A stretch of 63,965 nucleotides of DNA, counting the filler, from an uncultured Methanosarcinales archaeon (GTDB lineage Archaea; Nanobdellota; Nanobdellia; Woesearchaeales; CAZXZL01): the NCBI GenBank assembly GCA_964645415.1. It is 3 parts of 3 records of this genome, joined end to end, with 100 filler letters (N's around TTAATTAATTAA, not from the genome) between each part and the next. Parts side by side here need not be neighbours in the genome. Positions count along the whole stretch, not along the records: positions 1 to 22,683 come from CAZXZL010000012.1; positions 22,784 to 45,459 come from CAZXZL010000013.1; positions 45,560 to 63,965 come from CAZXZL010000018.1. One strand, 5' to 3'. Shown here piece after piece: positions 19,220-57,735 of this stretch (position 1 is its first letter; each line of letters starts with the position of its first letter). A program made the translations under genes and the position numbers. The notes beneath the pieces are model-generated. The model was not told where the DNA came from. It made no database searches and worked only from the letters and a program-made list of their open reading frames with translations.

Positions 19220-19435
19220 TAATTTTAAAAGTTTATGATAGTAAAAAATCTGTGGATTTTTTTATAAAAAGTAAAAAACTAATCAAAATATGATAAAAAG
19301 ATTATAAAATTCCGACAAGTTTCATAAGATGAAAAACGAATACACACTCTGAAAGACAATTCAACGAATATACTTAAACTTGAACGAATACAATTTTACT
19401 TAAAAAAAGATACACTAAACTTTAAACGAATAAAT
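19220..19435 (+). repeat. Intergenic repeat family copy 1 (hairpin plus iterated AACGAATA boxes)
   Basis: AAAAAATC-TGTG-GATTTTTT at 19243-19262 (near-identical at 45581-45600); AACGAATA at 19335, 19363, 19383 and 19425. Confidence 0.75.
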
Positions 19436-19465
19436 TCTCAAATAGAAAAAAAAGAAAAAAACGCT

Positions 19466-20404
19466 TTAATTTAAAACGCTTTCAATTTCTTGCTCAAAAA
19501 CATTGTATGGTTGAGCTCCACTTACAACATTATAACCAACCTCATCATTACCTATTAAAAATCCAGGTGTTCCTGTAATTCCTAATGATTGTCCAAATGA
19601 AGTTGATGCCATAACCTGCTCTTCATATCTGTTACTTTCCATACATTCTTCAAAATCTTCTTGATTTATACCTATATCAACTGCTAAGTTAGATAAATAA
19701 TCAATGTTATTAATGTCTTGATTTTGATTATCTAATATTGATTTTGACATTTCCCAGTATAAATCACCACCACCTAATTCACGGACACATTGTGTAGCTT
19801 CGTGAGGGATAGGAGTTCCTACACCTACAAAATCCATAAAAACATATTTTACTAAACCTTCATCAATATAATTCTCTTGAATTAATGGTTTTGTTTCATC
19901 ATTATGTCTTCCACAGAATTGACAATTATAGTCAGAAAACTCTACAATTATTACAGGCGCATCTTCATCACCTAAATAAGGTTCATCTTCAATCTGACTA
20001 CTATCTAAATCAGCGGTTTCTGGTTCTTGTGCTGGAGGTTGTGAAGTTTCTTCATCAAATGAGATTGCTTGTTCAATAAAATAACCTCCATCTTTAGTTA
20101 TATAAACAGGTATTTCTTGACCCTGAAAACTAACAGTTACTTCATAAAGATTACCAGCATCTTCAACATTTATTGCACTAATATCTTCACCAGTTAATTC
20201 CATTAAGAAGTTTGAAACTTTTTCACTTGCCTCTTGTTCTGTTATTGTGTTGGATTCAAAAACATTATCAAAACTAATATTAAAAGAGATTAAAAAAATT
20301 GTTACAACTAGTATACCTAAAATAAAAAAAACTAAATTTGAAATTTTTGATTCCATAAAACTTATTTCTTTTGATTTATCCTCTTTTTCTTTTGAGTTAA
20401 CCAT
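19466..20404 (-). CDS. Membrane-anchored DsbA-like thiol-disulfide oxidoreductase
   Basis: N-terminal TM helix, EFSDYNCQFC (CXXC), GITGTPGF and SGAQPY motifs. Confidence 0.92.
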   Translation of the reverse strand: MVNSKEKEDKSKEISFMESKISNLVFFILGILVVTIFLISFNISFDNVFESNTITEQEASEKVSNFLMELTGEDISAINVEDAGNLYEVTVSFQGQEIPVYITKDGGYFIEQAISFDEETSQPPAQEPETADLDSSQIEDEPYLGDEDAPVIIVEFSDYNCQFCGRHNDETKPLIQENYIDEGLVKYVFMDFVGVGTPIPHEATQCVRELGGGDLYWEMSKSILDNQNQDINNIDYLSNLAVDIGINQEDFEECMESNRYEEQVMASTSFGQSLGITGTPGFLIGNDEVGYNVVSGAQPYNVFEQEIESVLN

Positions 20405-20508
20405 ATTAACTATAGTTAAAGTAATTATTTAAAAAAGTTATTAAACATTGTTAATTTTTGAAAAGATATATAACTAATTAAATTATTATATTATACAGGT
20501 GATTATAT

Positions 20509-20889
20509 ATGGCTAATAAAAGAGCAATTTACAAATGTGATTTATGTGGTAATGTTGTTGAAGTTTATACTGAAGGTATTGGAGATCTTGTTTGTTGTGG
20601 AGAAGAAATGAATGAAATGAATGCAAAAACAGAAGATAAGACTGAAGAAAAACATGTACCTTCTATTAGAACAGATGGTAATAAAGTTGAAGTTGTTGTT
20701 GGAGAAAATCAAGAACATCCTATGGAAGAAAAACATTATATTATGTGGATCCAATTAAATGAAGGTGATAAGGAACATATTAAATTCTTAAAACCTAATG
20801 ATGAACCAAAGGCAGTATTTGAAGTTGAAAGCACTGATAAGCTAAGTGCAAAAGAATATTGTAATGTACATGGTTTATGGAAAGATTAA
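20509..20889 (+). CDS. dfx: Desulfoferrodoxin (2Fe superoxide reductase)
   Basis: CDLCGN..LVCCG, EKHVP, HPMEEKHYI and EYCNVHGLW motifs. Confidence 0.96.
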   Translation: MANKRAIYKCDLCGNVVEVYTEGIGDLVCCGEEMNEMNAKTEDKTEEKHVPSIRTDGNKVEVVVGENQEHPMEEKHYIMWIQLNEGDKEHIKFLKPNDEPKAVFEVESTDKLSAKEYCNVHGLWKD

Positions 20890-20917
20890 TTTTTTTCTTT
20901 CTTTATCTTTTTTTAAA

Positions 20918-21115
20918 ATGGTATTTAAAATAGAACCAATTGAGAGGATACTTAAATTAAATAATGATTTTTATTCAAGAGATTCTTATTCAAGTTTTGA
21001 TGAGAATAAAGATAATAAAAGCTTTAAAGATATATTTAATGAAGAAAAAGATAAAGATCTAAATGAGTTAAAATCTAAAATTTTTTCTTATAAAAATGAT
21101 TATTACAGGTTATAA
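20918..21115 (+). CDS. Hypothetical protein
   Basis: Short ORF from ATG 20918; no recognisable motif. Confidence 0.45.
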   Translation: MVFKIEPIERILKLNNDFYSRDSYSSFDENKDNKSFKDIFNEEKDKDLNELKSKIFSYKNDYYRL

Positions 21116-21179
21116 ATTCTACTTTTTATAAAAATCTTTATAAATATTAAATTACTAATTTAGCCCAAGATATACTAAA

Positions 21180-21515
21180 ATGGGACTAAATAAAAAGTTC
21201 AAGGAACTATCTAAAAAGATTCAAGATAGGATATGGAAAAATAAAATTAATAAAGGTTTTGATACTAAAAATGTTCCATTGGAGTTCTGTTATCTAAATG
21301 AAGAGGTTTCTGAGGCATTTGAGGCTTGGAGAAAGAAAAAAGAGGATCTTGGTGAAGAGCTAGCAGATGTTGCGATTCATTTATATGGTGTTGCAGAAAA
21401 AGTAGGTATTGATTTAGGAGAAGAGATTATAAAGAAAATGAAAAAGAATGAGAATAGAAAATATAAAACAGTGAATGGTGTTAAATTAAAAGAAGAGGAA
21501 GTTAGTGATAATTAA
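21180..21515 (+). CDS. MazG-like nucleotide pyrophosphohydrolase
   Basis: LNEEVSEAFEA and GEELADVAI motifs. Confidence 0.88.
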   Translation: MGLNKKFKELSKKIQDRIWKNKINKGFDTKNVPLEFCYLNEEVSEAFEAWRKKKEDLGEELADVAIHLYGVAEKVGIDLGEEIIKKMKKNENRKYKTVNGVKLKEEEVSDN

Positions 21516-21520
21516 AATAA

Positions 21521-22683
21521 TTAAGATAACACGCTTTCTTTACTAGAGTCTTCTATGAATAAACATGTCTTATCATCTAAGTTCTTTATTTTTTCAATTG
21601 AATCTAAGTCTGTTGGTTCTATTGGTATTATATGAATATCATTACGAGGAGCTTGTTTAAATACTGTTTCAAAGTCAGATATTATTACATTTGTTTTGGT
21701 ACTTTTTGGAAATCTTGATTCATATAGTAATCTATCTAAGTATCTTTTTGCTTTTTTCTTCTCTTTAAGGTCATTAACACACATCCAAACGTTAATGTTC
21801 CCTTCCCAGTTTTTCTTTATACTATATGCTAAAAGCATGGAAAGGTCATAATAACTATCTTCAAATAAATTTCTATTTAATACTCTTGGAGATATCCAAA
21901 CATGTATCTCACTTTCTGTTCCTAATCCAATTTCTTCGTTTCTTGCTGATAATACTAAACCACATTTATTATTTGATGTTGCTTTCATTATTTCTTCTAT
22001 GTCTGTTTTGTTTAAAAACTCATCTTTATATGGTAACATTAATATGTTTGCTGCAAAGGATTGACTTTCAATTGCTTCCATTGATATTATTACTGAATCA
22101 ACATAATCATAAGCATCAATTTTTGAATAAGAGGTAAAAAGTTTTTCTTCACTAAATTTATCGATAATGTTAGGTATTTCACGTAAATTATCATCATTTC
22201 TTGAGTTTTTTCTCATTTTAAAACCTAATATTGTTATCCTACCATGAGGATATGCCATTGATTTTATTAGTGGAAAGTTTGCAATTAATGATTTTGAGGA
22301 CCTTATTGGGATTAATATGTTTGGCTTCCATACATGAAGCGATGATTCTGGAAGGTCTCTTGTTTTTTCTTCTGCCCATTGTGATAATGATCTAAATAAA
22401 CCGGAACGAACATCTCCATTTTCTTGATTAATGGATTTATTTGCAATCATGATATAAATTGCTAGTATTGAGATAAAAGCAAATATACTTGCATAAGGAT
22501 TAATTAATAACATAATTACTATTGATGCTATTGCACCATAAAGTGGGACAATTCTTGGAACTTTAAATAATGGTCTAAAACTTCTTAATCCTAGATTTTG
22601 CTCTATAAATACAGATATATTTATTACTGCATATGTTATTAAGAAAAACATTGTAAGAACTTGAGCGATTAAATCAAGGCTTC
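21521..22683 (-). CDS. APC-family / cation-chloride cotransporter-like permease, C-terminal part (5' end lost at the gap)
   Basis: SLDLIAQVLTMFFLITY..N, FRPLFKVP and WKPNIL motifs plus a cytoplasmic domain; the frame is open to the N-gap. Confidence 0.85.
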
Positions 22684-22783
22684 NNNNNNNNNNNNNNNNN
22701 NNNNNNNNNNNNNNNNNNNNNNNNNNNTTAATTAATTAANNNNNNNNNNNNNNNNNNNNNNNNNNNNNNNNNNNNNNNNNNNN
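22684..22783. other. Artificial scaffold spacer
   Basis: 44 N + TTAATTAATTAA (stops in all frames) + 44 N. Confidence 0.98.
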
Positions 22784-25489
22784 AGTACCAGAAGCTAAAG
22801 TATGTCTCCTAATTTCACCTTCAGGACAATATTCACCACCATCCTCAGAAGAATCACAAACTAAATTTAACTCATAATCAATATCATTACCATTAGGAAA
22901 TACTTTAGTGTTAACTTGATAAGAAATCCTTAAACGACCTTTAATAAAATCATAACCCTCAATTTGTGAACTAGACTGAGTAGGCATAATAGTAGGATCA
23001 GCACGCTCAAATCTTTCACCAATTGTCTCAGCTAAACTAGAAAAATCAGTAATAGACCCAAAATCACTCCAATCACCAAAAATTAATCCTTTACAAGTAG
23101 CATGTACTACAGAAACCTCTTGATCACGAAATACATGTTGAATAGTTGAATCATATCTGCCAGTAAAATCATCAAAAACTTCTTTTCCACCCTCTAAAGC
23201 AGCTTCAATTTGACCAGATAAATCATCACGAATTACATCACTAGATAAAACATTTTCAAAAAAATCACTAGTTAAAAAACCACGGAAAAAATCATATACT
23301 AAATCACAAGCATATAATCTCATTAACTTATGACAATACTGATTAGGAGTCTCACCATCAGCAGCTGCTCTGAAACAATCAGCTGTTGAATTTAACATCT
23401 CTTGAATCATTGAAAAAGAAGCAGCCATTGCTGGAGTACAACCACAAGCAGTAGCACTTCCTAAACCTCTTCCAGGATCAATGTTAGTAAAAATTGGATC
23501 ATCTTGTGCCATATTAATTAAACATTTAGTTTGATCTCTTGTAACATTATAACACTCAGGTCCCATTCCACTTTGAATTTGATTAAAATATTCATCAGTA
23601 CTTAAATCAGGATCAACACAATAAATTTCACGACTTCTTCGTGTTCCTTGAATATTAGAATCAGTATGCTCAAAAACAGCAGCATTTTCACCATCACTAC
23701 AATCATCAAAATTTAGTCCTCTATCAATCCATTCCTCTCTTTGAGACTCTGAAGTTAAATGATGAACTCTAACAGAACCATCATCCATCTCCATTTCATT
23801 ACCATTAAGAATATCAAAATTATCATCATCGCAATTAGAAGGAACAGAAGGACACATAATTCTATCACAAAAACCCCACATCCATCTTTCAAAATCTGGA
23901 AGGTCATGTCCTGCAACTGCTGCAACATTAGAAACTACATTTGCTACAGTTAAACCACCACATGTAATTGCAAGATAACCAGTAACTTGATTTAATGTTT
24001 CAGTAATTTCTCCCATATCTTTAGATATATTTTCAAAATCATCAGCCATTTCATGTAATTCTTCAGGTGGGATTAACATTTCAGGAAATTGAATAGTAGT
24101 TGCTGATTTTAAATAATAGGTATCTTCAACAACTTCATCAACACCCTCTAAATTATATTCAAACTCAATTGGCCAAACAATTTTTAATTGTTTTTCAAAA
24201 TCATCATCTTTTAATTCTTTCCAGTCTATTCCATCAAAAGAATTATGATCAATTGTTCCAGAAAAACTTAATGTTAGTTTATTTTCATCTTCATTATATC
24301 TTATTAAAGGACTGATACCATCTCTTATTGTTATATATTCCTCTTCTTCACCTATTCTAACTTGAGTATTATGAATACCTACACTAACATCAACAATATC
24401 TTCAACACTTCCACTCCCTCTATAACTAAAAGTAGAATGAACTTGAATATTCATATCATGAGACATTATATGTTCTAAATAATATTCATTTGGCATAACA
24501 TGAGATGTTTCTCTACTCCATCGAGAATCACCTAATTTATATTCATATTGAACAACTTCTTTTTCAAAATTACCATAATCATCATATGTGATAAATAATA
24601 TATTATTTTCACCTTCAGATAAACCTAAAGGATAATTAAAAGAACCATCAGCATCAATTTCTTTATCTTCTACATCAGTAAAAATTTCACTCCAAATACT
24701 TCTAATTCCTAATTCCAAAGAGATTGATTTATTTGTAAAAATTTGAGAAGCATCATCAAAATTCTCAAATTGAAAACCAAAATCAGAAAAAGTATTATTT
24801 TCTAAATTATATATACTAATATATTTTCCAGATGCATTTCCTGAAAAAAAGTAAGGACTATGAAAAATATCATCATCACCATGTTCACCTGCAGGATCAA
24901 TATTTAATTCAAGGTCTTTATTTTTAACATCAATTTCTCTTGTAAACTCCCTACAGTTATTTAAATGATCACAAACAGTAAAATTAACATCATGAACTCC
25001 ATTTTCAAGGTCAATTTCTAAAGAATGATTTGTTTCCATAGATGTTGTATCAGAACTCCCATTACCTGTAACTTCAACATTTGCTTCAATATCTGTTTTT
25101 AGTTTAAATTCAACATTATTTTGATTAGATTTATCAGGAAAATCAAAAGAATCTAGTTCAGGAGGAGTTGTATCAATTGTTGTATTCTTTGTATCATTAA
25201 TTACATCTTCACCTTCTAAAAATACTTCTATTTCATTAAAACCTTCATTTAGATCTATTTTATAATCAAAAGAATGGCTTCCAGAATCAAAGATTTCGTT
25301 AATACCAACATTATTATCATTTCTTCTAAAATAAACTTCACATTCATCTGAACATTCTAAATATCCAGATATATTTACATTACTATAATTATAATAATCA
25401 TCTAATTGATCTAATTCAATAGTTTCAGCAAAAACCACTGAACTAAAAAAGAAAATACATAAAATCCACATTAATATTTTTAACTTCAT
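22784..25489 (-). CDS. Large secreted acidic Cys-rich protein with Ig-like segments; 3' end lost at the gap
   Basis: Signal peptide, DTTPP Ig-like linker, CDRIMCP and ACGCTP motifs; D/E-rich. Confidence 0.8.
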
Positions 25490-27291
25490 TTTACCCTCGG
25501 TTCATATTTTTCTGACGTTTCTTCTATTTCTAAAAAAGTGTCACTTGGATCATCATCAATATATCTATCTAGATATAAAGGAACTTCAAATCGATTATCA
25601 TCCATATGATTCTCAAAATCAATTGAAAGATTATCATTAAAGTATCCTCCAATTAAATCTTCTCCATGTGTTACAGTTATATATAAACTAAAATTAAAAT
25701 CAATTAAAGGAAGTTTTATATTAGGTATATCAGAACCATTAAAAACAAATTCTTCATTTACATAATTACTTTCAAAGGAAGCAACAAAAATATCACTACT
25801 TTCTATACTTAATTCCTCATATTCATCATTAACAAATTCGAATGAAAAATTTCTCATTGGAGTCATTAAAAAAGAATAATCTAAATCCAAATCAATATCT
25901 TCACCTGTTTCTTCTATTTGAACAAAGTCTTGTAAATATCCATCTTTTTCAAAAGAAATAAAACCACCATTACATTCAGGTAATTTTGTATCAAGTCTTG
26001 GCCTGTTAGAGTACATCTCATATGAAGTATTTCCAAGATAACAGTCAGCACCACAAAAGAAATAAACAGAAACATTCTCAAGATAATTATCACGATCATA
26101 CTTATCATTAAATCTTAAAGTTACATCAGATCCATTGTTTTCACAAGCTTGTGAAGAAGAAATATCTGTTCCAAGATCCATCCAACCAGTTCCTTCACGA
26201 GGTTGATTATTAACAACATAAGATTCTAATCCAAAATTAAAATTGTATCCTGTATTTGGATCATGTAAATTAAAAACAATTGGAAGTCTATAAGAAAATA
26301 AAAGGTGAGTTATTTGTAATCCTGGTATTGGAATATCAAAACCCATACCAGAAGGAATTCTTTGAGTAATTGAATGTAATTCATCTCCTCTCCTTGGAGT
26401 ACCATCAAATCTGGTTTGAAAATCAGAAGAAAACATTAAATCAATTTCTAAATCTTCAAATTCAAGATCTAAATTATGTGCTAAATTACTATAATACCCT
26501 TCAATATCATCAGAATCAGTAGTTAAATCAACTTCATTAAGATTCATAATTAAATAAGAATAAAAATCTCTTTCTAACTCTTCAAGACTCCATGTTTCAG
26601 GTCTGATTCCAACATCAATCATGTTAGGAGGAAAGATATGAGATCCAATTTCTTCAGTAATATTTTCTAAAAAACGAGATTCTCTTTGGTATTCAGTTAT
26701 TTCTTTAGCTAATTCAAAAAAATTACCAAGAGGTCTTCTTATTTCAGAATTAAAACTACTAACCATTGAAACATCTCCATCAGAGTCTCCTTTTTGAGAA
26801 ACTTCTACGGGATAATTATATTCAAATGAAACATAATCAGAAAAAATATTTATTTCAACAGAATCTTCACCTCTTCTATGAAAATCATATCTATCTGTTA
26901 ATTCATCAAAGTCATTTATACAATTTCTAAGATCAACAAGAGCTTCTTTTTCTAATTGTTCTTCAATTTCATCTAAATCAGGGATATCTTCTCTTGAAAG
27001 ATGAAACCAAACAGGAATCTGAAATCCAAAGTCTACATATGAATAAGGATCAACTCTCTCAACATCAACAAAACCACTTTGATACCCTACAGAATCAACT
27101 AAATCATAACCAACATTATCAATACAACCTTCTGCATAATTATATACAGAGTCAACATCAAAAGAATAAGTTCTTTCTTGATATTCAGATAATCTTTCAT
27201 TAACAAAGAAAATTAAAGTAAATGAAATTAATATAATTACTCCTAATAGAAAAAATAAAGATACTTGTCCTTTTTTATTATTTATATTCAT
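25486..27291 (-). CDS. Acidic surface protein with a class III (archaeal prepilin-like) signal peptide
   Basis: N-terminus KKGQVSLFFLLGVIILISF; ATGA overlaps with both neighbours. Confidence 0.82.
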   Translation of the reverse strand: MNINNKKGQVSLFFLLGVIILISFTLIFFVNERLSEYQERTYSFDVDSVYNYAEGCIDNVGYDLVDSVGYQSGFVDVERVDPYSYVDFGFQIPVWFHLSREDIPDLDEIEEQLEKEALVDLRNCINDFDELTDRYDFHRRGEDSVEINIFSDYVSFEYNYPVEVSQKGDSDGDVSMVSSFNSEIRRPLGNFFELAKEITEYQRESRFLENITEEIGSHIFPPNMIDVGIRPETWSLEELERDFYSYLIMNLNEVDLTTDSDDIEGYYSNLAHNLDLEFEDLEIDLMFSSDFQTRFDGTPRRGDELHSITQRIPSGMGFDIPIPGLQITHLLFSYRLPIVFNLHDPNTGYNFNFGLESYVVNNQPREGTGWMDLGTDISSSQACENNGSDVTLRFNDKYDRDNYLENVSVYFFCGADCYLGNTSYEMYSNRPRLDTKLPECNGGFISFEKDGYLQDFVQIEETGEDIDLDLDYSFLMTPMRNFSFEFVNDEYEELSIESSDIFVASFESNYVNEEFVFNGSDIPNIKLPLIDFNFSLYITVTHGEDLIGGYFNDNLSIDFENHMDDNRFEVPLYLDRYIDDDPSDTFLEIEETSEKYEPRVK

Positions 27292-28988: not shown

Positions 28989-28989
28989 T

Positions 28990-31282: not shown

Positions 31283-31306
31283 GTGATTAAAGATGGAAAT
31301 CTAGAC

Positions 31307-45384: not shown

Positions 45385-45459
45385 TAGCGGGAGGTGGATT
45401 TGAACCACCGACCTCCGGGTTATGAGCCCGACGAGCACTCCAGACTGCTCTATCCCGCT
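45385..45459 (-). tRNA. Initiator tRNA-Met(CAT)
   Basis: A1-U72 pair (AGCGGGA/TCCCGCT), GGG/CCC anticodon stem, CTCATAA loop; abuts the gap. Confidence 0.96.
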
Positions 45460-45559: not shown

Positions 45560-45790
45560 TAATTAAAAACTTATAAAAACAAAAAATCTGTTGATTTTTT
45601 TCAATTTTTATCAAGATTGACTAGGATAGTACCATATTTCATATAGAACTTTAGTTTCTATCAAATTCTATTCTTTTTATTTCATTCATATAATTACTTT
45701 TTTATTTAGATGATTTTGCCCTACAATATCTTTAGAAAATAAACGAATACATACACTTTAGCTAAAACGAATACACATTACGAAACTAAG
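45560..45790 (+). repeat. Intergenic repeat family copy 2 (most complete)
   Basis: Hairpin 45581-45600, AGGATAGTACCAT at 45623, TTAGTTTCTAT at 45651, TTAGATGATTTTGCCCTACA at 45706, AACGAATAC at 45742 and 45766. Confidence 0.85.
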
Positions 45791-46582: not shown

Positions 46583-46701
46583 TAATATCACAAAGTTACT
46601 AATATTTTAAAAACTAATATCTATAAATAATTTGAAATATCTACTAAACAGAAAATCAGTTATATAGATCAAGAATTTATAGAAGAATATCTGATTTATT
46701 G

Positions 46702-46992
46702 TTAGGTTTTTTTACAAATTTCCTCAACTTCACTTTCAATTTTTTCATCTTGATTGGATTCCGATCCAATGGGAAGAAAAAACTCATAAATATCATTCGA
46801 AATTGAGATTTTTTTAAATATTCCTTTAATTACGAAATAAAAGATATAAAAAGTAATTAAAATTCCACCAACCTCTACAAAAACATCAACAGCATTACCA
46901 TCAATAAATAAACTAATTACTAAAAAAGAGGTAACCAAAAAAATAGAAAATTTCTGAATCTTTGTAATAACATCTATCATATATAACTTCAT
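46702..46992 (-). CDS. Small membrane protein
   Basis: Two hydrophobic helices. Confidence 0.55.
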   Translation of the reverse strand: MKLYMIDVITKIQKFSIFLVTSFLVISLFIDGNAVDVFVEVGGILITFYIFYFVIKGIFKKISISNDIYEFFLPIGSESNQDEKIESEVEEICKKT

Positions 46993-47067
46993 AATTTAAA
47001 ATATATAAATAATTTGGAACTTAATTAAGAATTATTTAAGAAATAAATTTATTTTAAGAAAATGTTA

Positions 47068-47142
47068 TGCTCCGACCGGGATTTGAACCCGGGTGTTCGG
47101 CTCGAGAGGCCGAAATGATTGACCGGACTACACTATCGGAGC
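47068..47142 (-). tRNA. tRNA-Glu(CTC)
   Basis: Acceptor GCTCCGA/TCGGAGC; anticodon arm TCGGC-CTCTCGA-GCCGA. Confidence 0.97.
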
Positions 47143-47179
47143 AACAAATTTAAGAAAATTAACACACTTAAATATTTTT

Positions 47180-48364: not shown

Positions 48365-48461
48365 AAAGATATTACAAAAATCAAATATTTAAACTTTTTT
48401 AAATAAAAAAATTCACAAAATACACAAAAAATTATATAAAGATTATACAATTTTAATAATC

Positions 48462-48779
48462 ATGAAAATCCCATTTAATGATATAGTTTTTGAAGTTAAA
48501 AGAAATAAAAATAAAAAAAATATTAGAAGAAAAGCTAAAAAAGCTATTGATAATCTTTACAAAACTGCAACAAATTCTAAAGATAAAAGTATAAAAAAAG
48601 AATGCTATCAACAGTTATGGAATATTAAATTAAAATATAATCTTGATTTAAAAAAAGAAGTTAAGATTAGCTTTTGTAGAAAGTGTAAATCATCTGAAGT
48701 TAAAACAAGAACAAAAAATAATCGTTTAATAAAGACATGTAAAGATTGCGGATATATAAGAAGGTACCCACTTGATTAA
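48462..48779 (+). CDS. rnp4: RNase P protein component 4 (Rpp21)
   Basis: FCRKC and TCKDCGYIRRYP zinc ribbon. Confidence 0.85.
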   Translation: MKIPFNDIVFEVKRNKNKKNIRRKAKKAIDNLYKTATNSKDKSIKKECYQQLWNIKLKYNLDLKKEVKISFCRKCKSSEVKTRTKNNRLIKTCKDCGYIRRYPLD

Positions 48780-48780
48780 A

Positions 48781-50841
48781 ATGGAAAAAGTAAAAAAATC
48801 AGAAATAATATTTCCTTATAAAGAAATTAGAAAAAAACAAGATGACTTAATTGATTCTATAATTGAAGGTCTTAATAAAAAGAAAAGTATGATTTTTCAT
48901 GCACCAACTGGCCTTGGAAAAACTGTTGCAGCACTTGCACCAATGATTGATTATGCTAAAAATAATGATAAAAAAATTATGTTTTTAACAACAACTCATA
49001 CACAACACAAAATTGTTCTTGAAACTGTTAAAGAAATGAATGAATTAAGCGATGAAAGAATTATTGTATCTGATTTATTAGGAAAAAGATGGTTGTGCTC
49101 TCAAGAAGATTTAGATGTAGGATATAATAGTGAATTTATAGAATATTGTAAACAATTAAGAAAAGAAAAAAAGTGTAGATTTTATAACAATACTTTTGAT
49201 AAAGGATCTGTAAGTGATAAAACTGATGAACTAATAAGAAGGCTAAGAAAAGAAGATATTACTGCAAAAAAAGTACTAAATCTGTCTAAAGATGAAACAT
49301 TGTGTGGATATGAAGTTGCAATTCAACATTCAAAAGATGCTGACATTATAATAGGAGATTATCATTATGTATTTAATCCTGAAATAAGAGATTCATTCTT
49401 AAAAAGAATTGATTCAAGATTAGATGACTTATTAATAATTGTTGATGAGGCACATAATTTAACTAATAGATTGAGAGAATCTGCAAGTGATTCATTATCC
49501 TCAAATACTTTATTAAGAGCAATAAATGAAGCTGAAAAGTATGGATTTAATGATTTAGTAAAAAGAATTACAAAACTAAAAATTGGAATAACAATAAAAA
49601 CATTAAAACATATTTTAAAAAAATATTCTCATCGTAAATTAGATTATCTTCATGATAAGCTTGAAAAAGATTATGAAAATAAAATAGATAAAAAATTCTT
49701 AAAAACATTAATTGATGGTTTTGATAATTATGAGGACTTAATTGGAGAATTAGAAGCAGGAGCTGAATTTGTAAGAGAAAAAAAATATAGAAGTTATTTA
49801 GGTGCAATTGCTAGATTTCTAAGAGGATGGCCACATGATAGTAAAGGATATTTAAAGTATTTTACATTAATAGATAATCTTCAAAAAGGAGAAGAAGATA
49901 ATTTCCAACATTTGAAAAAATTAATTAAAAGAAATACAAAAAATATTCAAGCAACTAATAAAGAGGATAAAATTGAATTAATTGCTGATTACTTATTAAG
50001 TAGAAATATAATTATAAAAAATTCTTGTCTCGATCCAAGTATTGTATCTAAAAAAGTAATAGAAAATTCAGAAAATATTCTTTTAATGTCAGGAACTTTA
50101 ACACCAATTGAAAGATATAGTGATTTATTAGGTTTTAAAGATCCTATGATGAAAGAATTTGAATCTCCTTTTCCAAAAGAAAATAGAAAATTAATTTTAA
50201 ACAAAAATATTACAAGTAAATATACACATAGAGGACATGAACAATATGAAAAGATGGCAAATTATTGTTATAAACTACATTCTTTAAATAAAAATGTAAT
50301 TATCTTTTTTCCAAGTTATTTTATGTTAAAAAAGATTTATTCTTTATTTTCAGAGATGAATAATGAAAATTTACTTCAATCACACCAAAAAAGAGTTTTT
50401 ACAGAATTTAGAGATATGACTCTAGAAGATAAAAATTCAATTATTGAATTCTTTAAAAAGTCAAAAAATAAAAGGAAAATTACTCTATTTGCTGTTGCTG
50501 GAGGAAATTTTTCAGAAGGAATAGATATGCCTAATGTAATTGATATTATAACTATAATCGGTCTTCCTTTAGCTAAACCAAACTTATTAACAAGAGCAAC
50601 AATTGATTACTATGATTATAAATTTGGTAAAGGTTGGGAATATGCTTATACTGTACCTGCAATAAATAGAGTTCTACAAGCTGCAGGACGTGCAATAAGA
50701 AGTGAAGATGATAAGGGAGTCATCATCTTTGGTGATAAAAGATATTCAAAGTATAAAAAATACTTCCCTCATGACTATGAATTAGAGGTTCACAAAGATA
50801 ATGATCAAATCATCCAATCAATTGAGTTATTTTATAGTTAA
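48781..50841 (+). CDS. xpd: XPD/Rad3-family Fe-S DNA helicase
   Basis: FPY..RKKQ, APTGLGKT, four Fe-S Cys, VDEAHN, SGTL, SEGID and QAAGRAIRS motifs. Confidence 0.93.
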   Translation: MEKVKKSEIIFPYKEIRKKQDDLIDSIIEGLNKKKSMIFHAPTGLGKTVAALAPMIDYAKNNDKKIMFLTTTHTQHKIVLETVKEMNELSDERIIVSDLLGKRWLCSQEDLDVGYNSEFIEYCKQLRKEKKCRFYNNTFDKGSVSDKTDELIRRLRKEDITAKKVLNLSKDETLCGYEVAIQHSKDADIIIGDYHYVFNPEIRDSFLKRIDSRLDDLLIIVDEAHNLTNRLRESASDSLSSNTLLRAINEAEKYGFNDLVKRITKLKIGITIKTLKHILKKYSHRKLDYLHDKLEKDYENKIDKKFLKTLIDGFDNYEDLIGELEAGAEFVREKKYRSYLGAIARFLRGWPHDSKGYLKYFTLIDNLQKGEEDNFQHLKKLIKRNTKNIQATNKEDKIELIADYLLSRNIIIKNSCLDPSIVSKKVIENSENILLMSGTLTPIERYSDLLGFKDPMMKEFESPFPKENRKLILNKNITSKYTHRGHEQYEKMANYCYKLHSLNKNVIIFFPSYFMLKKIYSLFSEMNNENLLQSHQKRVFTEFRDMTLEDKNSIIEFFKKSKNKRKITLFAVAGGNFSEGIDMPNVIDIITIIGLPLAKPNLLTRATIDYYDYKFGKGWEYAYTVPAINRVLQAAGRAIRSEDDKGVIIFGDKRYSKYKKYFPHDYELEVHKDNDQIIQSIELFYS

Positions 50842-51975
50842 TTATCTAACTCTAAAACTCAATTTTTCTATGTATGGTCTTTCAACTTTTTCAATCTCTA
50901 ATGATTTATACTCTCTTAAAATATTATTAAGATAATCATCATGATAATTACATAATAAATTGATTACTTTTCCTTCACTTCCTGCTCTTGCTGTTCTTCC
51001 AATTCTATGAACATAGAAAGCTGGGTCGTTAGGAATATCAAAATTATATATGTGAGAAATTCCATCAACATGAATTCCACGAGCTGCAACATCAGTACAT
51101 ACTAATACTTTCTTATGACCTTTCTTAAAAGATCTCATAGCTTTATTTCTTTTGTTTTGTGAAAATCCACCATGAATTGATGCTGAATTAAAACCGTGTC
51201 TTCTTAAGTTTTTAGAAACTAAACCAGTTGTTCTTCTTGTATTACAAAAAACCATCACAAGATCACTTTCTTCTTCATTTAATAAATGTACTAATAAAGA
51301 AAATTTAAGATCTTTTGGAACTTCATAGATTTTTTGTTTTAATTTCTTTGGATCAACTTGCTTTTTAGCAGTAACATTAATTGGATTGTCCATGTATTTT
51401 CTTGCTAATGATTCAATCTCTTTAGGAATTGTAGCTGAGAAAAATAATGTTTGTTTATTTCTTGGACATACTTTCATAATGTCTTCAATATCACCAATAA
51501 AACCCATATCAAGCATAGTATCAGCTTCATCTAATACAAATGTATTGATATTACTTGTATCAATAGTACCTCTATTAATATGATCTTTAAGTCTTCCTGG
51601 AGTTGCAACAACAATTTCAGAATGTTTTAATTTTTTAATTTGTCTTCTTATAGAAACTCCACCATAAACAGACATAACATTAAGTTTTCCATTAGATAAT
51701 CTATCTAAGTAATTTTTAACTTGAGTTGCAAGTTCTCTTGTAGGAGTTATAACAAGACCTTGAACTCCTTGATTAGGAATTGCATTTTCAACTACACCAA
51801 CACCAAAAGCTAATGTTTTTCCAGAACCAGTTGCTGATTCTCCTAAAACATCTTTTCCTTTAATAATTGAAGGAATTGTTTTTTCTTGAATTAATGTTTG
51901 TTCACTAAATTCAAATTTGTTTTTAATCGTTCTTTTCATTTCTTTGCCTAAATTACTCTCTTTAAATGTTCTCAT
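50842..51975 (-). CDS. DEAD-box RNA helicase
   Basis: ATGSGKT, PTRELA, TPGR, DEAD, SAT, ARGIH and HRIGRTAR motifs. Confidence 0.96.
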   Translation of the reverse strand: MRTFKESNLGKEMKRTIKNKFEFSEQTLIQEKTIPSIIKGKDVLGESATGSGKTLAFGVGVVENAIPNQGVQGLVITPTRELATQVKNYLDRLSNGKLNVMSVYGGVSIRRQIKKLKHSEIVVATPGRLKDHINRGTIDTSNINTFVLDEADTMLDMGFIGDIEDIMKVCPRNKQTLFFSATIPKEIESLARKYMDNPINVTAKKQVDPKKLKQKIYEVPKDLKFSLLVHLLNEEESDLVMVFCNTRRTTGLVSKNLRRHGFNSASIHGGFSQNKRNKAMRSFKKGHKKVLVCTDVAARGIHVDGISHIYNFDIPNDPAFYVHRIGRTARAGSEGKVINLLCNYHDDYLNNILREYKSLEIEKVERPYIEKLSFRVR

Positions 51976-52136
51976 TTAAAATACTCCGCTAGAAATTTGT
52001 TATAGAAAGTAGAAATATGATAATTTTAGCTTTATATAAAAAATCTCTCAACTCTAATCTAAAACGTGGTCCCTTTTTAAATGTTTGTATTTTTTAACTC
52101 AAAACTTATATATATAATAAAATGAAATAAAATCAT

Positions 52137-52253
52137 ATGCCAACAGAAAAAAAAGATTTTATCACTAATTTTGGAAAAATGATTATTTATTTTTTTATTG
52201 TAGCATTTATTTTCATATTTATAATTGGTTTAATTTATTTAGCAATTACTTAA
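52137..52253 (+). CDS. Putative 38-aa single-TM peptide (missed by the ORF track)
   Basis: MPTEKKDFITNFGKMIIYFFIVAFIFIFIIGLIYLAIT; TATA-like box about 30 nt upstream; its stop overlaps the convergent gene. Confidence 0.45.
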   Translation: MPTEKKDFITNFGKMIIYFFIVAFIFIFIIGLIYLAIT

Positions 52254-52720
52254 ATCTCATCTAAAAATTCATAATCAATTAATCCCCAATCATCGCTAAT
52301 TCTAATTAATCCACCACCAACACTCATTCCTTGTGACCAAATTATTACATTAACAAATGAATCATCTTTTTCAAACACATATCCCTTACTCCCACCATCT
52401 CTAAAATATATTTTATCAATTAATTCCCAACCATAATTTTTAGGAACATTTTCAAAGTGTTTTCTTGCTTCAAATATATAATCATTCCATTTTTGTACAG
52501 GGACATCATTAACACCTTCAACAGAGAATCCATAGTTTAAATCTTCTATCTCAGATAGTACTTCTTTTCTTTGAGGTATTTCTAAAGTAAATTCAGTTTG
52601 ATTAATTTCATCTACTCTTGGATATACTGGAAAATCATTGATGAGAGTATAATCTTGTGGTTCAGATATAGAACAACTTGATAATAAAAAGATAAATATT
52701 AACAAAATTTTAATTCTCAT
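52250..52720 (-). CDS. Putative lipoprotein
   Basis: MRIKILLIFIFLLSS-C lipobox; GGTG SD. Confidence 0.7.
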   Translation of the reverse strand: MRIKILLIFIFLLSSCSISEPQDYTLINDFPVYPRVDEINQTEFTLEIPQRKEVLSEIEDLNYGFSVEGVNDVPVQKWNDYIFEARKHFENVPKNYGWELIDKIYFRDGGSKGYVFEKDDSFVNVIIWSQGMSVGGGLIRISDDWGLIDYEFLDEI

Positions 52721-52734
52721 CTAAAACACCTAAA

Positions 52735-52923
52735 TTATTTATTTTCATATTTTTTCATAAGAAATTTTCCTATAAAAAATAATATAACACCAATAACTAA
52801 TGAAACATCCATTTGAGCAGGAGCAGTAATCATACTTAAAACAACAAAAATTAAAGCTACAAAGTAAATAAAGTAAGATACTTTTTCCATGAATGGTTTT
52901 GATTTAAATTTTTCAGTAACCAT
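52735..52923 (-). CDS. Small two-TM protein
   Basis: Two hydrophobic helices. Confidence 0.65.
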   Translation of the reverse strand: MVTEKFKSKPFMEKVSYFIYFVALIFVVLSMITAPAQMDVSLVIGVILFFIGKFLMKKYENK

Positions 52924-53038
52924 ACTTATTTAATAAAAATCAGATTTATAAATATTTTTTAAAAAAAAGAACTGGTTATTGAAAATAATTTCATTTTTCT
53001 TAATTATAATTTATATTAGTTTAAAATTGTCTAAATTT

Positions 53039-54217
53039 ATGATTAATAGCTCTCTTGGAATTTTATTAGGATTTATATTAGGGATATTTACGGGATTAAT
53101 TCCAGGGATTCATATTAACTTATTATCAGTTATAATTATTTCAATTTTTAACATAATTTCAATTGATAGTTACTTTTTCTTCTTTGTTATTCTTTCAATG
53201 TCAATCACACATACTTTTTTTAATGCTTTTCCAAGTATATTACTTGGTATTCCTGATTCAGAATCAATATTTAATGTATTAGCAGGACATAAATTAGTTC
53301 TTGAAGGAAAAGCTAAAAAAGCTATTTGGTTAACACTAATTGGTTCATTACTTGGTGCAATTTATTCCATTCCTTTTTTCATTGTTATTTATCAAATCGA
53401 TGATATTCCAAATAATGAGCTAATAATGTTGATTGTTTTTTTTATAATACTTTCAGTAATGATTTTAAAAAATGATACTTCAATAAGATTTATCGTTTTA
53501 TTTGGTCTGTATGGATATTTATTTTTAGATGTTATTAATTTAAATGAACCATTATTTCATATCTTTTCAGGTATTTTTGCAATTGCTCCAATTATTACAT
53601 CAATTAAAGAAAAAGTAGAATTACCTGATCAAAAACCATTAAAAAAAGATATAAAAAAAACTCAGATGATAAAGATAATTCCAACAATCATTTTTTCAGT
53701 TTCAACATTAGTATTTCCAGGTATTTCTACAAGTATTGGATTAATGTTTTTATTTATGATAATTAAAACTACTGATGAGCTATATCTAATTTTGACTGGT
53801 GCAATGGATACTATAACAATGTTTCTTGCGATTCCATTTTATTATTCTATGGGTTATAAAAGAAATGGATCAATAATTGCACTAAGTGAACTTAAGAGCA
53901 CTATTACATATTCAGAAATTATTAAGGTTTTAATTATTATGATTTTAATATGTTATTTAAATTATGAAATTGCTAATTTTCTTATTAAATACATACTAAA
54001 TGTGTTAAAAAAGTTAAATTATCTTTATATTAATGTAACTATTTTAATAATGATAGTTATAATTTCAATTATTCTTGATTCTTTCTTAGGTCTTTTTTGT
54101 CTAATAATAGGTGTTTTGTTAGGTTTATACCTTTTAAATAAAGATTCTCCAAGATATTTTGCAATGAATGTTATATTTATTCCAGTTCTTTATAGAACAC
54201 TCACTTCTTTAATATAA
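53039..54217 (+). CDS. TctA-like (COG1784/DUF112) membrane protein
   Basis: GIFTGLIPGIHIN, THTF...PSILLGIPD and LAGHKL..G motifs. Confidence 0.85.
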   Translation: MINSSLGILLGFILGIFTGLIPGIHINLLSVIIISIFNIISIDSYFFFFVILSMSITHTFFNAFPSILLGIPDSESIFNVLAGHKLVLEGKAKKAIWLTLIGSLLGAIYSIPFFIVIYQIDDIPNNELIMLIVFFIILSVMILKNDTSIRFIVLFGLYGYLFLDVINLNEPLFHIFSGIFAIAPIITSIKEKVELPDQKPLKKDIKKTQMIKIIPTIIFSVSTLVFPGISTSIGLMFLFMIIKTTDELYLILTGAMDTITMFLAIPFYYSMGYKRNGSIIALSELKSTITYSEIIKVLIIMILICYLNYEIANFLIKYILNVLKKLNYLYINVTILIMIVIISIILDSFLGLFCLIIGVLLGLYLLNKDSPRYFAMNVIFIPVLYRTLTSLI

Positions 54218-54220
54218 AAG

Positions 54221-55756
54221 TCACTCTATTTTTATAGTTTGACCTTTCTTAATCTGAAATTCATTTATAACTAAATCATCTTCAATTATTTTTAATGTAA
54301 AACCTTCATCTGGCATTATTTCGGTTTCATCTCCTATATCTATTGATTCATCAATCTCTTTTCCAGAAAGAAAATCATAAATTTCTTCATCAGTTTCAGC
54401 TGAATAAACAGAACCATCTTTACTATTAACAAAAGAAGTAAAAGCAATTCCTGCAGAATCTAATGGAACAATTCTAACTTGCCAATAAAGCACATCATCA
54501 ACAATTACTGGTAATGGTTCAACTGGAATAAATCCAGTATCACTTGTTCGATCTGCCCAATTAACACGACTATTAGCACGTCTTACATAATTCATAGCAC
54601 GATTAGCACCAATTAAACCTTGATCTCTATCTAATTTAAATAACTCATAATCTCCTGTTTTTCCATCAATTATCCAAACTTCAAATAACCCTGATGCTTC
54701 ACCATAAGGTTCTGTTGCAATAAATAGTTTAGGACCATCTTCAGTAACAATTGTAAATGGTTGATCATTTCCTCTTCCTGGAATTTCAGCAACTTCTAAT
54801 TGATTTTCATGGAAAAATAATTTATTAATAATTCCATTACGATATTCAGTAGATGATATATATTTATGAGCTAAATCATATGGATAAACTCTCTGATCAT
54901 TTAGTCTTTCATCATTTTCAATGTTTTCTGATTCAATAAAATCAATGTTTCCATCTGAATCAGCTAAAGAAATACCACCAAATTTAGGAATAGTATAAAA
55001 AATTGGAAATTTAAATCTATATTCATAATCAATGTATGGTGTTGCAAGATATGTATTATTATCATGATTAAATACAAAACTATCTTGATATTTAACAAAA
55101 TATTGTCCTTTTAATAACTGCCAGTAAAGATTATCAGTAATTAACATTCCTTCACCATAAGTCATTTCTGTATTATCATAAAAAATATTTGGACTAATTG
55201 TTGTCATATCAACAAAGACTGCTCCTTTTTGTTTTAATAAAAATTTATTAAGAGTTCCATCAGGAACTAATGATTGCATCCAATAAGGTTTACCATCAAT
55301 AAAACTTATATCACTTTCTCCTGTTTTATATCTTGGTTCTTGTAGAGAATTTTCTGCATATTCTTCTGCAACTACTCTTGGAAGAATTCTTGGATTTTCA
55401 TGATCAATATCTGGAAGTGTTTCAATTAAATTATGATTACTCATTACTTCATTAGATAAATCTAAGTTAGTATAAATTGAAGATAAAAACATTCCAAAAA
55501 TAAAAAATACAGTAAAAACAACTAATGATAGATTTATTGCAGAAATAATATTTTTCTTATAGACATAAAAATAACTAATAAATAAAACAACTGCAGCAAT
55601 TATTAAAGATTGTAAAATTACAGGGTTAATATAAAAAAAGATGAAAAAAGAATGTAAGTAAGGTCTAAAAAAGTATCCTATTAAAGATAATAAAACAATT
55701 AAAACAACGATAAAATAAGTTAAATTATTTTTAAAAAAGTCATTTAAAGATTTCAT
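54221..55756 (-). CDS. Membrane-anchored protein with a large acidic extracellular domain
   Basis: Three N-terminal TM helices followed by a soluble beta-rich domain. Confidence 0.75.
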   Translation of the reverse strand: MKSLNDFFKNNLTYFIVVLIVLLSLIGYFFRPYLHSFFIFFYINPVILQSLIIAAVVLFISYFYVYKKNIISAINLSLVVFTVFFIFGMFLSSIYTNLDLSNEVMSNHNLIETLPDIDHENPRILPRVVAEEYAENSLQEPRYKTGESDISFIDGKPYWMQSLVPDGTLNKFLLKQKGAVFVDMTTISPNIFYDNTEMTYGEGMLITDNLYWQLLKGQYFVKYQDSFVFNHDNNTYLATPYIDYEYRFKFPIFYTIPKFGGISLADSDGNIDFIESENIENDERLNDQRVYPYDLAHKYISSTEYRNGIINKLFFHENQLEVAEIPGRGNDQPFTIVTEDGPKLFIATEPYGEASGLFEVWIIDGKTGDYELFKLDRDQGLIGANRAMNYVRRANSRVNWADRTSDTGFIPVEPLPVIVDDVLYWQVRIVPLDSAGIAFTSFVNSKDGSVYSAETDEEIYDFLSGKEIDESIDIGDETEIMPDEGFTLKIIEDDLVINEFQIKKGQTIKIE

Positions 55757-55814
55757 AATAATCACAATATTAAACTCATATTAATAATATATAAATTGTA
55801 TTATTCTAAAAAAT

Positions 55815-55930
55815 GGGATGATAGTTTCTATTAAGTTCTATTTCTATTAGCATATTTTTTCCTTAGATGATTTTGCCCTACATACATCGAAGATGATTCA
55901 ACGAATACAACCATCGAAGATGAATAAACT
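55815..55930 (+). repeat. Intergenic repeat family copy 3
   Basis: TAGTTTCTAT at 55822; exact 20-mer TTAGATGATTTTGCCCTACA at 55863 (= 45706); CATCGAAGATGA at 55885 and 55912; AACGAATAC at 55900. Confidence 0.85.
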
Positions 55931-55931
55931 T

Positions 55932-57383
55932 TTAAGAAAACATGTTTTTAATTAAATAAATTATATCACTTAATTTTTTATGAAGTCTACTTTCTTTAAA
56001 TTTGATATTAATTATTTTATCTAACAATTTATATGTTTTTTTATCATAAGGAAACCAATTTATCTCTTTTAATCTATTTTTACTAACCATGACTGATTTC
56101 TTTTGAACAAAACTCATTATTCCTTCTTTACCATGATAACGTCCAATCCCACTATTTTTATTTCCTCCAAAGGGAAGGTCAGGATTAGCAACATTCTTTA
56201 TAACATCATTAATATAACAATTTCCAACATTTAATTCACTTACAATCTCTTTTGCTTTCTTTATGTTTTTTGTCCAAATACTTGCTCCAAGACCAAATTC
56301 AGAATTATTTACTAGTTTAATTACTTCATCTTTAGTATTAAATTTGATAATAGGTAAAATAGGACCAAATGTTTCATTTTTCATAACATCCATATTAGAT
56401 GAGACATTACTTAAAACTAAAGGAAATATGTAATCATCTTTTTCAACAAATTCATTATGACATTTAGCACCTTTTTTTATTGCATCATTAATTTGTGATT
56501 TTACAATTTCTTTTTGTTTAGGTGATATAAAAGGTCCTATATCTGAAAATTTTTTTGAACCAAAATTTAAATCTTTAATTCGATTAAGAATTTTTTCAAT
56601 AAAGTCATCATATAAATTATTTTGAATAAATACTCTTTCAACACCAACACATAATTGTCCTAAATTAGCAAATCCCCCATATAAGGCTCCTTCAGCAACA
56701 CGGTCAAGATCAACATCATCAAAAACAACCATAGCATCTTTTCCACCTAATTCCAATTCAACAGGAATTAAGTCATCAGAAGCTTTTTTCATTATCTTTT
56801 TTCCAGTATTAACACTTCCAGTAAAGAATATTTTATTAGGCTTTGATTCAATAAGTTTTTCACCAACATTTCCATCACCTAATGCTAATTGAAAAACATC
56901 TTTTTTTAGACAAATATTATTAAATATTTTTTTAATTAACTTACCAACATTTGGATTAACCTCAGATGGTTTTAAAACAACACTATTTCCAGAGACTAAA
57001 GCAGTAATAGTTGGTGCCATAGATAAATAAAAAGGATAATTCCAAGGGGATATTACTAAAACAGAACCATAAGGTTCATATTCAACATAAGAATAATTTC
57101 TAAAAAATTCAAAAGGAGTTTTTCTTTTATCTTTTTTTAAAAACTTCTTAGCTTTATTTTCATAATACTTAATAAGATTTAAAGTAGGAAAAATATCAGA
57201 CATAATACATTCAACATCTGGTTTATTAGTATCTTTTTTAATAACATCAATAATCTCTTGTTTATTTTCAACAATATAATTTCTAATTTTTTTTAAATAA
57301 TTAATTCGTTCATTAACAGAAATTTTTTTCCAATCAGAATATGCTTTTTTAGAATTATTAATAATTGATTCATAATCATTCAT
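55932..57383 (-). CDS. NAD(P)-dependent aldehyde dehydrogenase
   Basis: SPWNYP, KPSE, FTGS, LELGGKD, catalytic Cys in GQLCVG, ETFGP and PFGG motifs. Confidence 0.95.
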   Translation of the reverse strand: MNDYESIINNSKKAYSDWKKISVNERINYLKKIRNYIVENKQEIIDVIKKDTNKPDVECIMSDIFPTLNLIKYYENKAKKFLKKDKRKTPFEFFRNYSYVEYEPYGSVLVISPWNYPFYLSMAPTITALVSGNSVVLKPSEVNPNVGKLIKKIFNNICLKKDVFQLALGDGNVGEKLIESKPNKIFFTGSVNTGKKIMKKASDDLIPVELELGGKDAMVVFDDVDLDRVAEGALYGGFANLGQLCVGVERVFIQNNLYDDFIEKILNRIKDLNFGSKKFSDIGPFISPKQKEIVKSQINDAIKKGAKCHNEFVEKDDYIFPLVLSNVSSNMDVMKNETFGPILPIIKFNTKDEVIKLVNNSEFGLGASIWTKNIKKAKEIVSELNVGNCYINDVIKNVANPDLPFGGNKNSGIGRYHGKEGIMSFVQKKSVMVSKNRLKEINWFPYDKKTYKLLDKIINIKFKESRLHKKLSDIIYLIKNMFS

Positions 57384-57420
57384 ATTAATCACATAATAAT
57401 TTTAAGATTATAATTTAAAA

Positions 57421-57735
57421 AGTATTCGTTTAAAAGTATAGTTTGTCTTCGTTTAATCTTCTTCGAAATTAGTCCATCAAAATCATCTTAAAAAAAAGAA
57501 ATAGAAGTTTATAAAAGTGAAAACAAAAATAATTAGAAAATTATAGAAACTAACGTGCCATTCGTTAGAATGGTACCATCCTTATCAAATTACTAAAATC
57601 AAAGATTTATAGAACTTATTAAATTACAAATTTAAAAGTGTGATAAAATTTGAGATCAAATCATCTTAAAGAAAAGGATTTTATAAAATCAAAAATAAAA
57701 TAGAAATAAAGAAATAGAATTTAATAGGAATCTCT
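57421..57735 (-). repeat. Intergenic repeat family copies 4 and 5 (reverse orientation)
   Basis: Reverse complement shows AGGATGGTACCAT (57570-57582), TTAGTTTCTAT (57543-57553), TAAGATGATTTTG (57478-57490), AACGAAGAC (57445) and AACGAATAC (57422). A second partial module lies at 57656-57730. Confidence 0.8.

Follow-up and report, generated by a model that had tools for sequence, protein, structure and literature searches.

What is the repeated intergenic DNA that recurs along this stretch of an archaeal genome, and by what means could it have spread? The stretch, which we call the window, comprises 63,965 nucleotides of an uncultured archaeon placed in the Woesearchaeales (assembly GCA_964645415.1), with contigs C12, C13 and C18 joined by N spacers; we use this name for the order because a protein from another of its genomes bears the label Candidatus Woesearchaeota. 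The genome spans 961 kb in 79 contigs, has a GC content of about 25% and was scored as 100% complete; it is represented in soda-lake metagenome runs of a single study and is the sole member of its family among the genomes compared. DPANN genomes are usually regarded as compact and poor in repeats. A first-pass annotation of the window had proposed a dispersed repeat family in four intergenic regions, numbered here 1 (19220-19435), 2 (45560-45790), 3 (55815-55930) and 4 (57421-57735, reversed). Our analysis shows a real, lineage-amplified mosaic repeat family, with at least 60 copies of a two-hairpin core in about 80 mosaic loci of a 0.96-Mb genome. We judge the chances to be about even that this core is an origin-derived, non-autonomous, gene-less element that was mobilised in trans and remixed by recombination, a reading built on sequence comparisons.

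A motif search of the window recovered every motif named in the first-pass annotation at its place. The AAAAAATC-N4-GATTTTTT hairpin lies at 19243 and 45581, AGGATRGTACCAT at 45623 and 57582 (minus strand), TAGTTTCTAT at 45652, 55822 and 57552 (minus), TWAGATGATTTTG at 45706, 55863 and 57490 (minus), and TCGAAGAWGAT at 55887 and 57466 (minus), while the iterated AACGAATA boxes were found at 19335, 19363, 19383, 19425, 45742, 45766, 55900 and 57430 (minus). An exact 20-mer is common to regions 2 and 3, and the copy said to start at a contig end is region 2, which begins at base 1 of contig C18. As had also been proposed, each copy carries a subset of the motifs, the four regions being partial mosaics of shared modules. 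The accompanying view that motifs persist while spacers diverge held for the motifs only, as the spacers are themselves conserved, interchangeable modules. They are shared and uneven in length rather than unique, in agreement with the earlier statement that this is not a CRISPR array, although no search was aimed at cas genes.

Motif sharing, for which a comparison with shuffled sequence had been suggested, was far above chance in non-coding DNA. In the 110 kb of non-coding DNA of the genome, set against 30 dinucleotide shuffles, the key 13-mer AGGATRGTACYAT occurred 61 times versus 0, with all copies non-coding; TWAGATGATTTTG occurred 52 times versus 0.03, TCGAAGAWGAT 32 versus 0.1 and AACGAATA 42 versus 4.7. 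Each of 60 genomes of the same order held between 0 and 2 copies of AGGATRGTACYAT, and the reversed control was absent from the present genome. A fuzzy search of the genome returned 68 cores, and 84 non-coding regions carry at least three module tokens, a few of them probably weak. Core orientation relative to neighbouring genes is random (25 same and 18 opposite on the 5' side, 24 same and 23 opposite on the 3' side). Of the internal gaps between genes, 9 of the 470 tandem ones hold a core, as do 4 of the 120 divergent and 4 of the 96 convergent ones, and 6 of the 40 tRNA genes have one within 400 bp. In addition, non-coding DNA has 13 times the density of C-GNA-G triloop hairpins seen in coding DNA. 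Repeated 16-mers contain 65 of the 158 contig ends.

On the strand carrying AGGATRGTAC, which was the strand of the first-pass annotation and is opposite to the sense strand of the core, the usual order of modules is D motif, hairpin H1, an optional insert (X, Y or Z), hairpin H2, T-rich linker, D motif and tail. Units are often arrayed head-to-tail or back-to-back (inverted). Within the window the two-hairpin core is present in regions 2 and 4 only; region 1 consists of a W module and a tail, and region 3 of a linker and a tail. The genome has 15 W modules, each with 11-bp inverted ends around about 80 bp, a TATA-like TATAAAA and fusion to a tail, and 14 of the 15 lie upstream of an outward-reading gene. 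Terminal inverted repeats are confined to W, with none at the core.

Both core hairpins showed covariation. Among 24 insert-free cores, 96.6% of cells were paired and 37 two-sided changes were counted versus 10.6 in shuffles (0/500), with at most 7 when partners were slid in the same cores; these figures count related sequences, not independent events. The H1 loop and one H2 stem mismatch were conserved (alignment A1). Selection appears to act on pairing rather than on stem sequence, and palindrome correction could also yield two-sided changes. Covariation had been raised as a check in the first-pass annotation, which had seen neither these hairpins nor the nick-site-like loop described below.

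The same core is found in at least three other Woesearchaeales genomes at one to three copies each (three in G180, one in G284 and one in G389). These five copies were found by loose patterns and read by eye, and three genomes is a lower bound from a noisy pattern. All five read ATCCT-NNN-CAA-NN-TTGATAAA on the sense strand, and all five carry exact CTTGATA and read CTTGATAAAG. A model built from the present genome alone matched all five modules, with E values from 2e-5 to 0.04 at these pre-selected loci. The G389 module lies between two 13-nt copies of a tRNA-Val 3' end; one G180 copy abuts a tRNA-like 3' end (T-loop onward) at a contig edge, two G180 copies are in tandem, and the G284 copy comes after what appears to be a stop codon, with no duplication to be seen. 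Beyond these three genomes, the covariance model with strict filters matched 0 of 140 relatives and the 17-base core pattern 0 of 400 genomes of the class; exact core patterns were absent or at chance level in sets of 60, 300 and 400 related genomes. The exact H2 pattern gave 42 single matches in 596 Gb of genomes, with about 35 estimated by chance, as well as 15 in metagenomes and 2 in viral contigs; the low-GC contexts inspected held no family member. Single matches in G004, G007, G034 and G056 were dismissed as chance contexts.

What points to a replication origin is the H1 loop, whose sense strand reads TTGATA, the sequence at the heart of the rolling-circle nick site of pGT5 and pC194, and which is near-invariant in this genome as TTGATAA. 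According to PMC9569500, the archaeal Rep74/Rep75 origin is nicked at TCTTG/ATA, and the pC194 origin is listed in PMC7072734. The pC194 record folds into two hairpins, a first one that ends in ATCCT and then a small one whose loop holds CTTGATA. This is the same order as in the core, where the covarying H2 and ATCCT lie directly upstream of the nick-like site. Two further Rep plasmids place a GAAA-loop hairpin about 10 nt before a plus-strand CTTGATA. The G284 module matched 14 of 15 bases of the first pC194 hairpin's loop region, then AATCCT and CTTGATAA in the same order, and its best match in all of pC194 was the origin (0/150, 0/300 and 3/200 shuffles). The core therefore shares with the origins of the pC194/pUB110 family (Rep_1, PF01446) and of pGT5/pTN1 (Rep75/Rep74) a GNA- or GAAA-loop hairpin, a short spacer and a TTGATA site, and with pC194 in particular a first hairpin ending in ATCCT and a site within a small loop. 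Unlike those origins, this putative one has at least 60 chromosomal copies without a rep gene, carries a nick-like loop with its own covarying stem, and mostly reads TTTGATA.

The H1 loop is also a hot spot for junctions, where inserts, stacked caps and sharp 3' ends gather. The H1 loop is the point at which inserts X, Y and Z sit, with a decayed loop remaining upstream of them; caps belonging to different alleles form stacks, and nine caps pass directly into unique DNA. All 62 cap blocks (ATAAA-RR-Y-TG) have TG directly before them, with variable sequence further upstream; we place the junction at or just before this TG, the G/A position not being fixed by the data. Counting context classes, the cap has 7 upstream and 13 downstream, and the H2 3' arm 2 and 3. 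The 60 cores that could be parsed comprise 55 haplotypes. The two arms of one hairpin are linked (p<0.001), whereas H2 and H1 alleles lying about 15 bp apart are unlinked (p 0.19-0.75), which suggests that exchange between copies has been frequent.

If the core is indeed origin-derived, it would likely be a copy of a double-strand origin of the pC194/pGT5 type that an HUH Rep could nick in trans at TTG/ATA. A plasmid or virus Rep, such as the one found in G102, would nick and rejoin at H1 loops. Gene-less origin units, handled as single-stranded DNA, could in this way be copied and made circular, then multimerise or insert again, in many cases within or next to copies already there. The mosaic would follow as the many copies underwent host recombination and gene conversion. 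We think it likely that the nicking enzyme was borrowed from a plasmid or virus, because no such enzyme was found in the genome.

Profile searches of the genome found no Y1_Tnp (whose control matched in 6 of 14 genomes), RVT_1, Phage_integrase or TnpB, and no PF23343, Rep-Arvir (PF25227) or DDE_Tnp_1 (PF01609), other DDE families not being searched. Neither Rep_1 (PF01446) nor Y2_Tnp (PF04986) was found, their controls matching only below cut-off or not at all. The earlier remark that the window holds no transposase thus extends to the whole genome for Y1, TnpB, DDE_Tnp_1, reverse transcriptase and tyrosine recombinase. The best Rep-profile match, a weak one (E 0.007), was rejected as a protein resembling adenylate kinase. 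A scan of 914 open reading frames for HUH motifs gave 9 matches, of which four were assigned by Pfam to SWIM, amylase, radical SAM and GH57 and two were HIT-like by motif. Y2_Tnp was not found in G180 or G284, and a weak PF04986 match in G389 proved to be Lon protease. As a separate observation, tyrosine recombinase (PF00589), and hence a XerA-like protein, was found nowhere in this genome, with matches in 14 of 14 control genomes.

Elsewhere in the order, Rep_1 was detected in 5 of 251 genomes (1 above cut-off) and PF23343 in 8 of 256 (5 above cut-off); some of these Rep loci have atypical GC and may be misbinned, and other PF23343 loci had no core nearby. The best candidate for the enzyme within the order is the Rep of G102. 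It lies in a small integrated element (G102:C8, L366:6188-10159) that comprises an integrase-like gene, small regulators, the HUH Rep and a downstream hairpin. This Rep has 317 aa, matches Rep_1 above cut-off and has intact HUH motifs with N- and C-terminal cysteine clusters; 832 relatives were found at E<1e-10 among cluster representatives, and a profile of these relatives matched a pC194 reading frame, which we take as RepA, at E 1e-32. About 100 nt beyond the rep gene, a hairpin shares an exact 15-nt stretch with the G284 module. By these searches the order contains an apparently suitable enzyme family, and no element joining a Rep to the exact core was found. On another contig, which may be misbinned, G001:C88 (L361:781-2055) encodes an IS91-like Y2 transposase-type protein (HUH, YxxRY by eye).

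A number of results weigh against an origin-derived core. The Rep75 query, the G102 Rep query and a 151-sequence Rep profile detected no Rep in the present genome, none was found in G180, G284 or G389, and viral contigs contained no autonomous element with the exact core. The hairpin match in G102 was not significant by score (6/40 shuffles) and is notable mainly for its position, with no TTGATA-loop hairpin at matching spacing. Among intact H1 loops in the genome, 7 of 27 read CTTGATA, 19 TTTGATA and one TCGATA. Its cores gave no significant alignment to pC194 or pGT5, the G284 result is modest after comparison of 8 modules with 4 plasmids, and G389 and one G180 copy hit the same pC194 site under one scoring without significance. 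Chance origin-like matches do occur, because in the Streptococcus thermophilus plasmid, one of the two further Rep plasmids, the best match of 7 of 8 modules was a palindrome opposite the likely origin strand. When the G284 module was compared by BLAST with 72,556 plasmids, no origin turned up. The arms of H1 still match in 39 of 57 copies, an agreement that strict exchange at the loop would be expected to wear down, and the D motif forms a second junction (7 upstream and 10 downstream classes). Finally, contigs from three or four soda-lake runs of one study, one of them possibly the source, showed no circles; contigs of three runs break at the same repeat boundaries, so that this absence tells us little.

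Those contigs likewise contained no empty sites, so that of the earlier suggestion to look for empty sites and target duplications only the second part bore fruit, with duplications at some loci and not at others. In the population sampled, the copies seem to be fixed, and a large share of them could by now be inactive.

We consider it rather unlikely, though deserving of attention, that these are REP-, BIME- or BOX-like hairpins that owe their spread to host recombination alone, or to an enzyme, RAYT-type or other, that was lost or is missing from the assembly, with a convergent likeness to origins. Stable GNA-loop hairpins recur in many single-stranded elements, the H2 stem has a conserved mismatch, and with 65/158 contig ends in repeats an enzyme gene could be unassembled. 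The modular, lineage-specific, extragenic organisation in tandem and inverted clusters is also that of REP dimers and clusters as described in PMC3733652. Like REP, BIME and REPIN sequences, which depend on RAYT (HUH Y1), the family has short imperfect hairpins in multicopy mosaic clusters that were likely handled as single-stranded DNA; unlike them, it has a two-hairpin core, an archaeal host, no RAYT found and, by the definition given in that paper, no GTAG/CGTC tag at the foot of either hairpin (alignment A1). Y1_Tnp was not found in the genome, and convergence would not account for the agreement with a known nick site of the one loop that is invariant in all four genomes. The BOX elements described from Streptococcus pneumoniae are modular repeats with a variable number of internal units, a likeness of description only, and we know of no nick-site link for them. 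Of the three options offered by the first-pass annotation, a mobile unit resembling REP or a MITE (a miniature transposable element with inverted repeats) comes closest, except that only W, and not the core, has terminal inverted repeats. The 11-bp inverted ends of W are indeed MITE-like, but W is tail-fused and strongly oriented, and no DDE_Tnp_1 was found. IS91/ISCR and Helitron elements combine Rep-type nicking with one defined end and variable far capture (PMC5714925), resembling the sharp cap and ragged far end seen here; the family differs from them in that direct repeats flank some copies, where neither IS91 nor Helitrons generate such repeats, and in that Y2_Tnp was not found. By the tests made, the family is not a member of the REP/RAYT, IS91 or MITE families.

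The flanks raise a different question, namely whether circles of core plus target copy were inserted by an integrase or by homologous recombination, duplicating the target (tRNA ends in the relatives, the stretch of linker and D motif in this genome), with the hairpins as recombination signals rather than a nick site. The tRNA-Val 3'-end copies around the G389 module and the tRNA-like end abutting a G180 copy speak for such mini integrative elements, and left and right flanks are more alike within than between loci (0/20,000 permutations), mainly from 4 of 20 loci, among them one with a 39-nt exact duplication unique to C25. A locus's own flank ranked first at 6 of 20 loci but had no preference at the other 14, units that abut unique DNA with both ends assembled show no gene-end duplication, and the G284 copy has none. 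Given also that tyrosine recombinase was not found in the genome, we regard this explanation as improbable, and as partly compatible with an origin-derived core, for which it could supply the insertion step. That the family is a structured RNA, or a promoter or leader cassette kept for gene regulation, strikes us as quite improbable. Hairpin covariation, a conserved H2 mismatch that is a G-U pair on the sense strand, and the placement of W upstream of outward-reading genes (14/15) with TATAAAA would suit it, yet the bias of W may stem from a distinct promoter function that only W has, core orientation is random with copies also between convergent genes, and the shuffling of alleles, like stacking and truncation, is better suited to selfish DNA. 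The Rfam search of the window returned only four tRNAs above the gathering threshold and no family matching the repeats. Random orientation and DNA-type C-GNA-G triloops likewise weaken the earlier option of a structured non-coding RNA. As for the third earlier option, protein-binding sites, a host role of such sites in replicating or segregating the chromosome or in organising the nucleoid is very improbable: iterated short boxes would fit it, and another system may handle the chromosome in a genome where no Xer was found, but exact core patterns are nearly absent from relatives, selection appears to be on pairing rather than stem sequence, and the structure is ragged and nested.

Further candidates were rejected. 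A coding function of the core is contradicted by 7- and 8-nt loop alleles that shift the frame, and frames read by eye were closed. Reading the tails and W as single-strand origins was not supported, as the motifs given in PMC9569500 are only 4-6 nt and occur here in both orientations. The motif order does not fit hammerhead, box C/D or group II domain V structures.

The earlier description of an undescribed dispersed element is supported, with no Rfam family in the window, no CRISPR-like arrangement and, in the genome, no Y1, TnpB, DDE_Tnp_1, reverse transcriptase or tyrosine recombinase found. The family is apparently unpublished, our literature search, which left most subscription journals uncovered, having found no earlier description of Woesearchaeota intergenic hairpin repeats, DPANN REP or trans-mobilised rolling-circle-origin repeats. 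The origin reading, the allele linkage test and the candidate Rep are new contributions. We suggest only tentatively that bare rolling-circle origins, as parasites on the Rep of plasmids or viruses that pass through, have spread across an entire archaeal chromosome and represent a new class of prokaryotic interspersed repeat. If so, the tRNA-end-duplicating modules of other Woesearchaeales would gain a concrete mobilising enzyme, and the sites, present in dozens, might serve as decoys for Rep proteins entering the cell and hold them there. Were the core to be an HUH nick site, Rep-driven mobile DNA (IS200/IS605, IS91, REP/RAYT, Helitron, Replitron) would be extended to gene-less chromosomal origins.

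Within the window, region 1 opens with a W module on the plus strand (19208..19316) whose 11-bp inverted repeat is GGAATTTTATA...TATAAAATTCC and which has an internal hairpin at 19243-19262 (DNA fold z -2.6). A distance of 73 bp separates it from the downstream gene ftsZ, identified by its sequence, which reads away. The adjoining plus-strand tail (19317..19435) has four AACGAATA boxes by motif search, the core being absent from this copy. Region 2 starts at the edge of contig C18 with a W-type remnant bearing the AAAAAATC-N4-GATTTTTT hairpin (45560..45600, plus; motif search), followed on the minus strand by H1 (45601..45620), which reads CAATC-TTGATAAA-AATTG with exact CTTGATA and is a hybrid with arms from two different alleles. 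From the pGT5/pTN1 origin as given in PMC9569500, a nick is predicted between 45612 and 45611. The ATCCT segment, a slightly degenerate H2 and the flanking TAGTTTCTAT motif come next (45623..45660, minus; covariation and model); the model match spans 45596-45667 at 81.7 bits, this copy being a member of the model's training set. A T-rich linker, the D motif (TTAGATGATTTTG, 45706) and a tail with two AACGAATAC boxes complete the region (45661..45790, plus; motif search). The tRNA-Met displayed beside it is not a real neighbour, since the window joins separate contigs; the 5' end of this gene (45385-45459) is the end of contig C13, and an unassembled repeat may sit just upstream.

Region 3 is a core-less copy on the plus strand (55815..55930) with TAGTTTCTAT, linker, D motif, CATC-GAA-GATG triloop hairpins and one AACGAATA box. 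In region 4, a minus-strand tail (TCGAAGAAGAT, AACGAATA), D motif at 57490 and linker (57421..57554; motif search) adjoin H2, CATCCT and the left arm of H1 on the plus strand (57555..57590), the likely sense orientation of the element. An X-type insert with two triloop hairpins sits within the H1 loop (57591..57640, plus; DNA fold and insert survey), and the cap, comprising the TGATAAA loop and the right arm of H1, follows (57641..57652, plus; cap survey), with a predicted nick between 57642 and 57643. The plus strand of 57535-57660 has a DNA fold z of -3.9. On the far side of the core are a second D motif and a partial linker in direct-repeat arrangement (57653..57735, minus).

In addition, several smaller observations were made. 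In G043:C47 (L176:1255-1460), a tRNA-Ser precedes a structured insert of another kind, about 85 nt long, and a further copy of about 22 nt of its own 3' end, without this core. At 54467-54554 of the window, run X1 alone carries, with one third of the depth, another allele that diverges strongly from the first, by about 18 differences over 90 nt. Finally, at window positions 1-420 (C12) and on contigs C4, C6, C10, C19 and C42 of the same genome, unrelated proteins (L31e, S3, L7/L30, FKBP, TFIIE-alpha and two without a clear family) have ends that form tails rich in Lys, Ser and Asp, with up to 75 nt of identical tail DNA. These tails contain the D motif in antisense, GAAATCAAAATCATCYAA occurring 9 times in coding sense and 14 times elsewhere, and may have arisen through conversion between the genes' tails or be where the D module came from.

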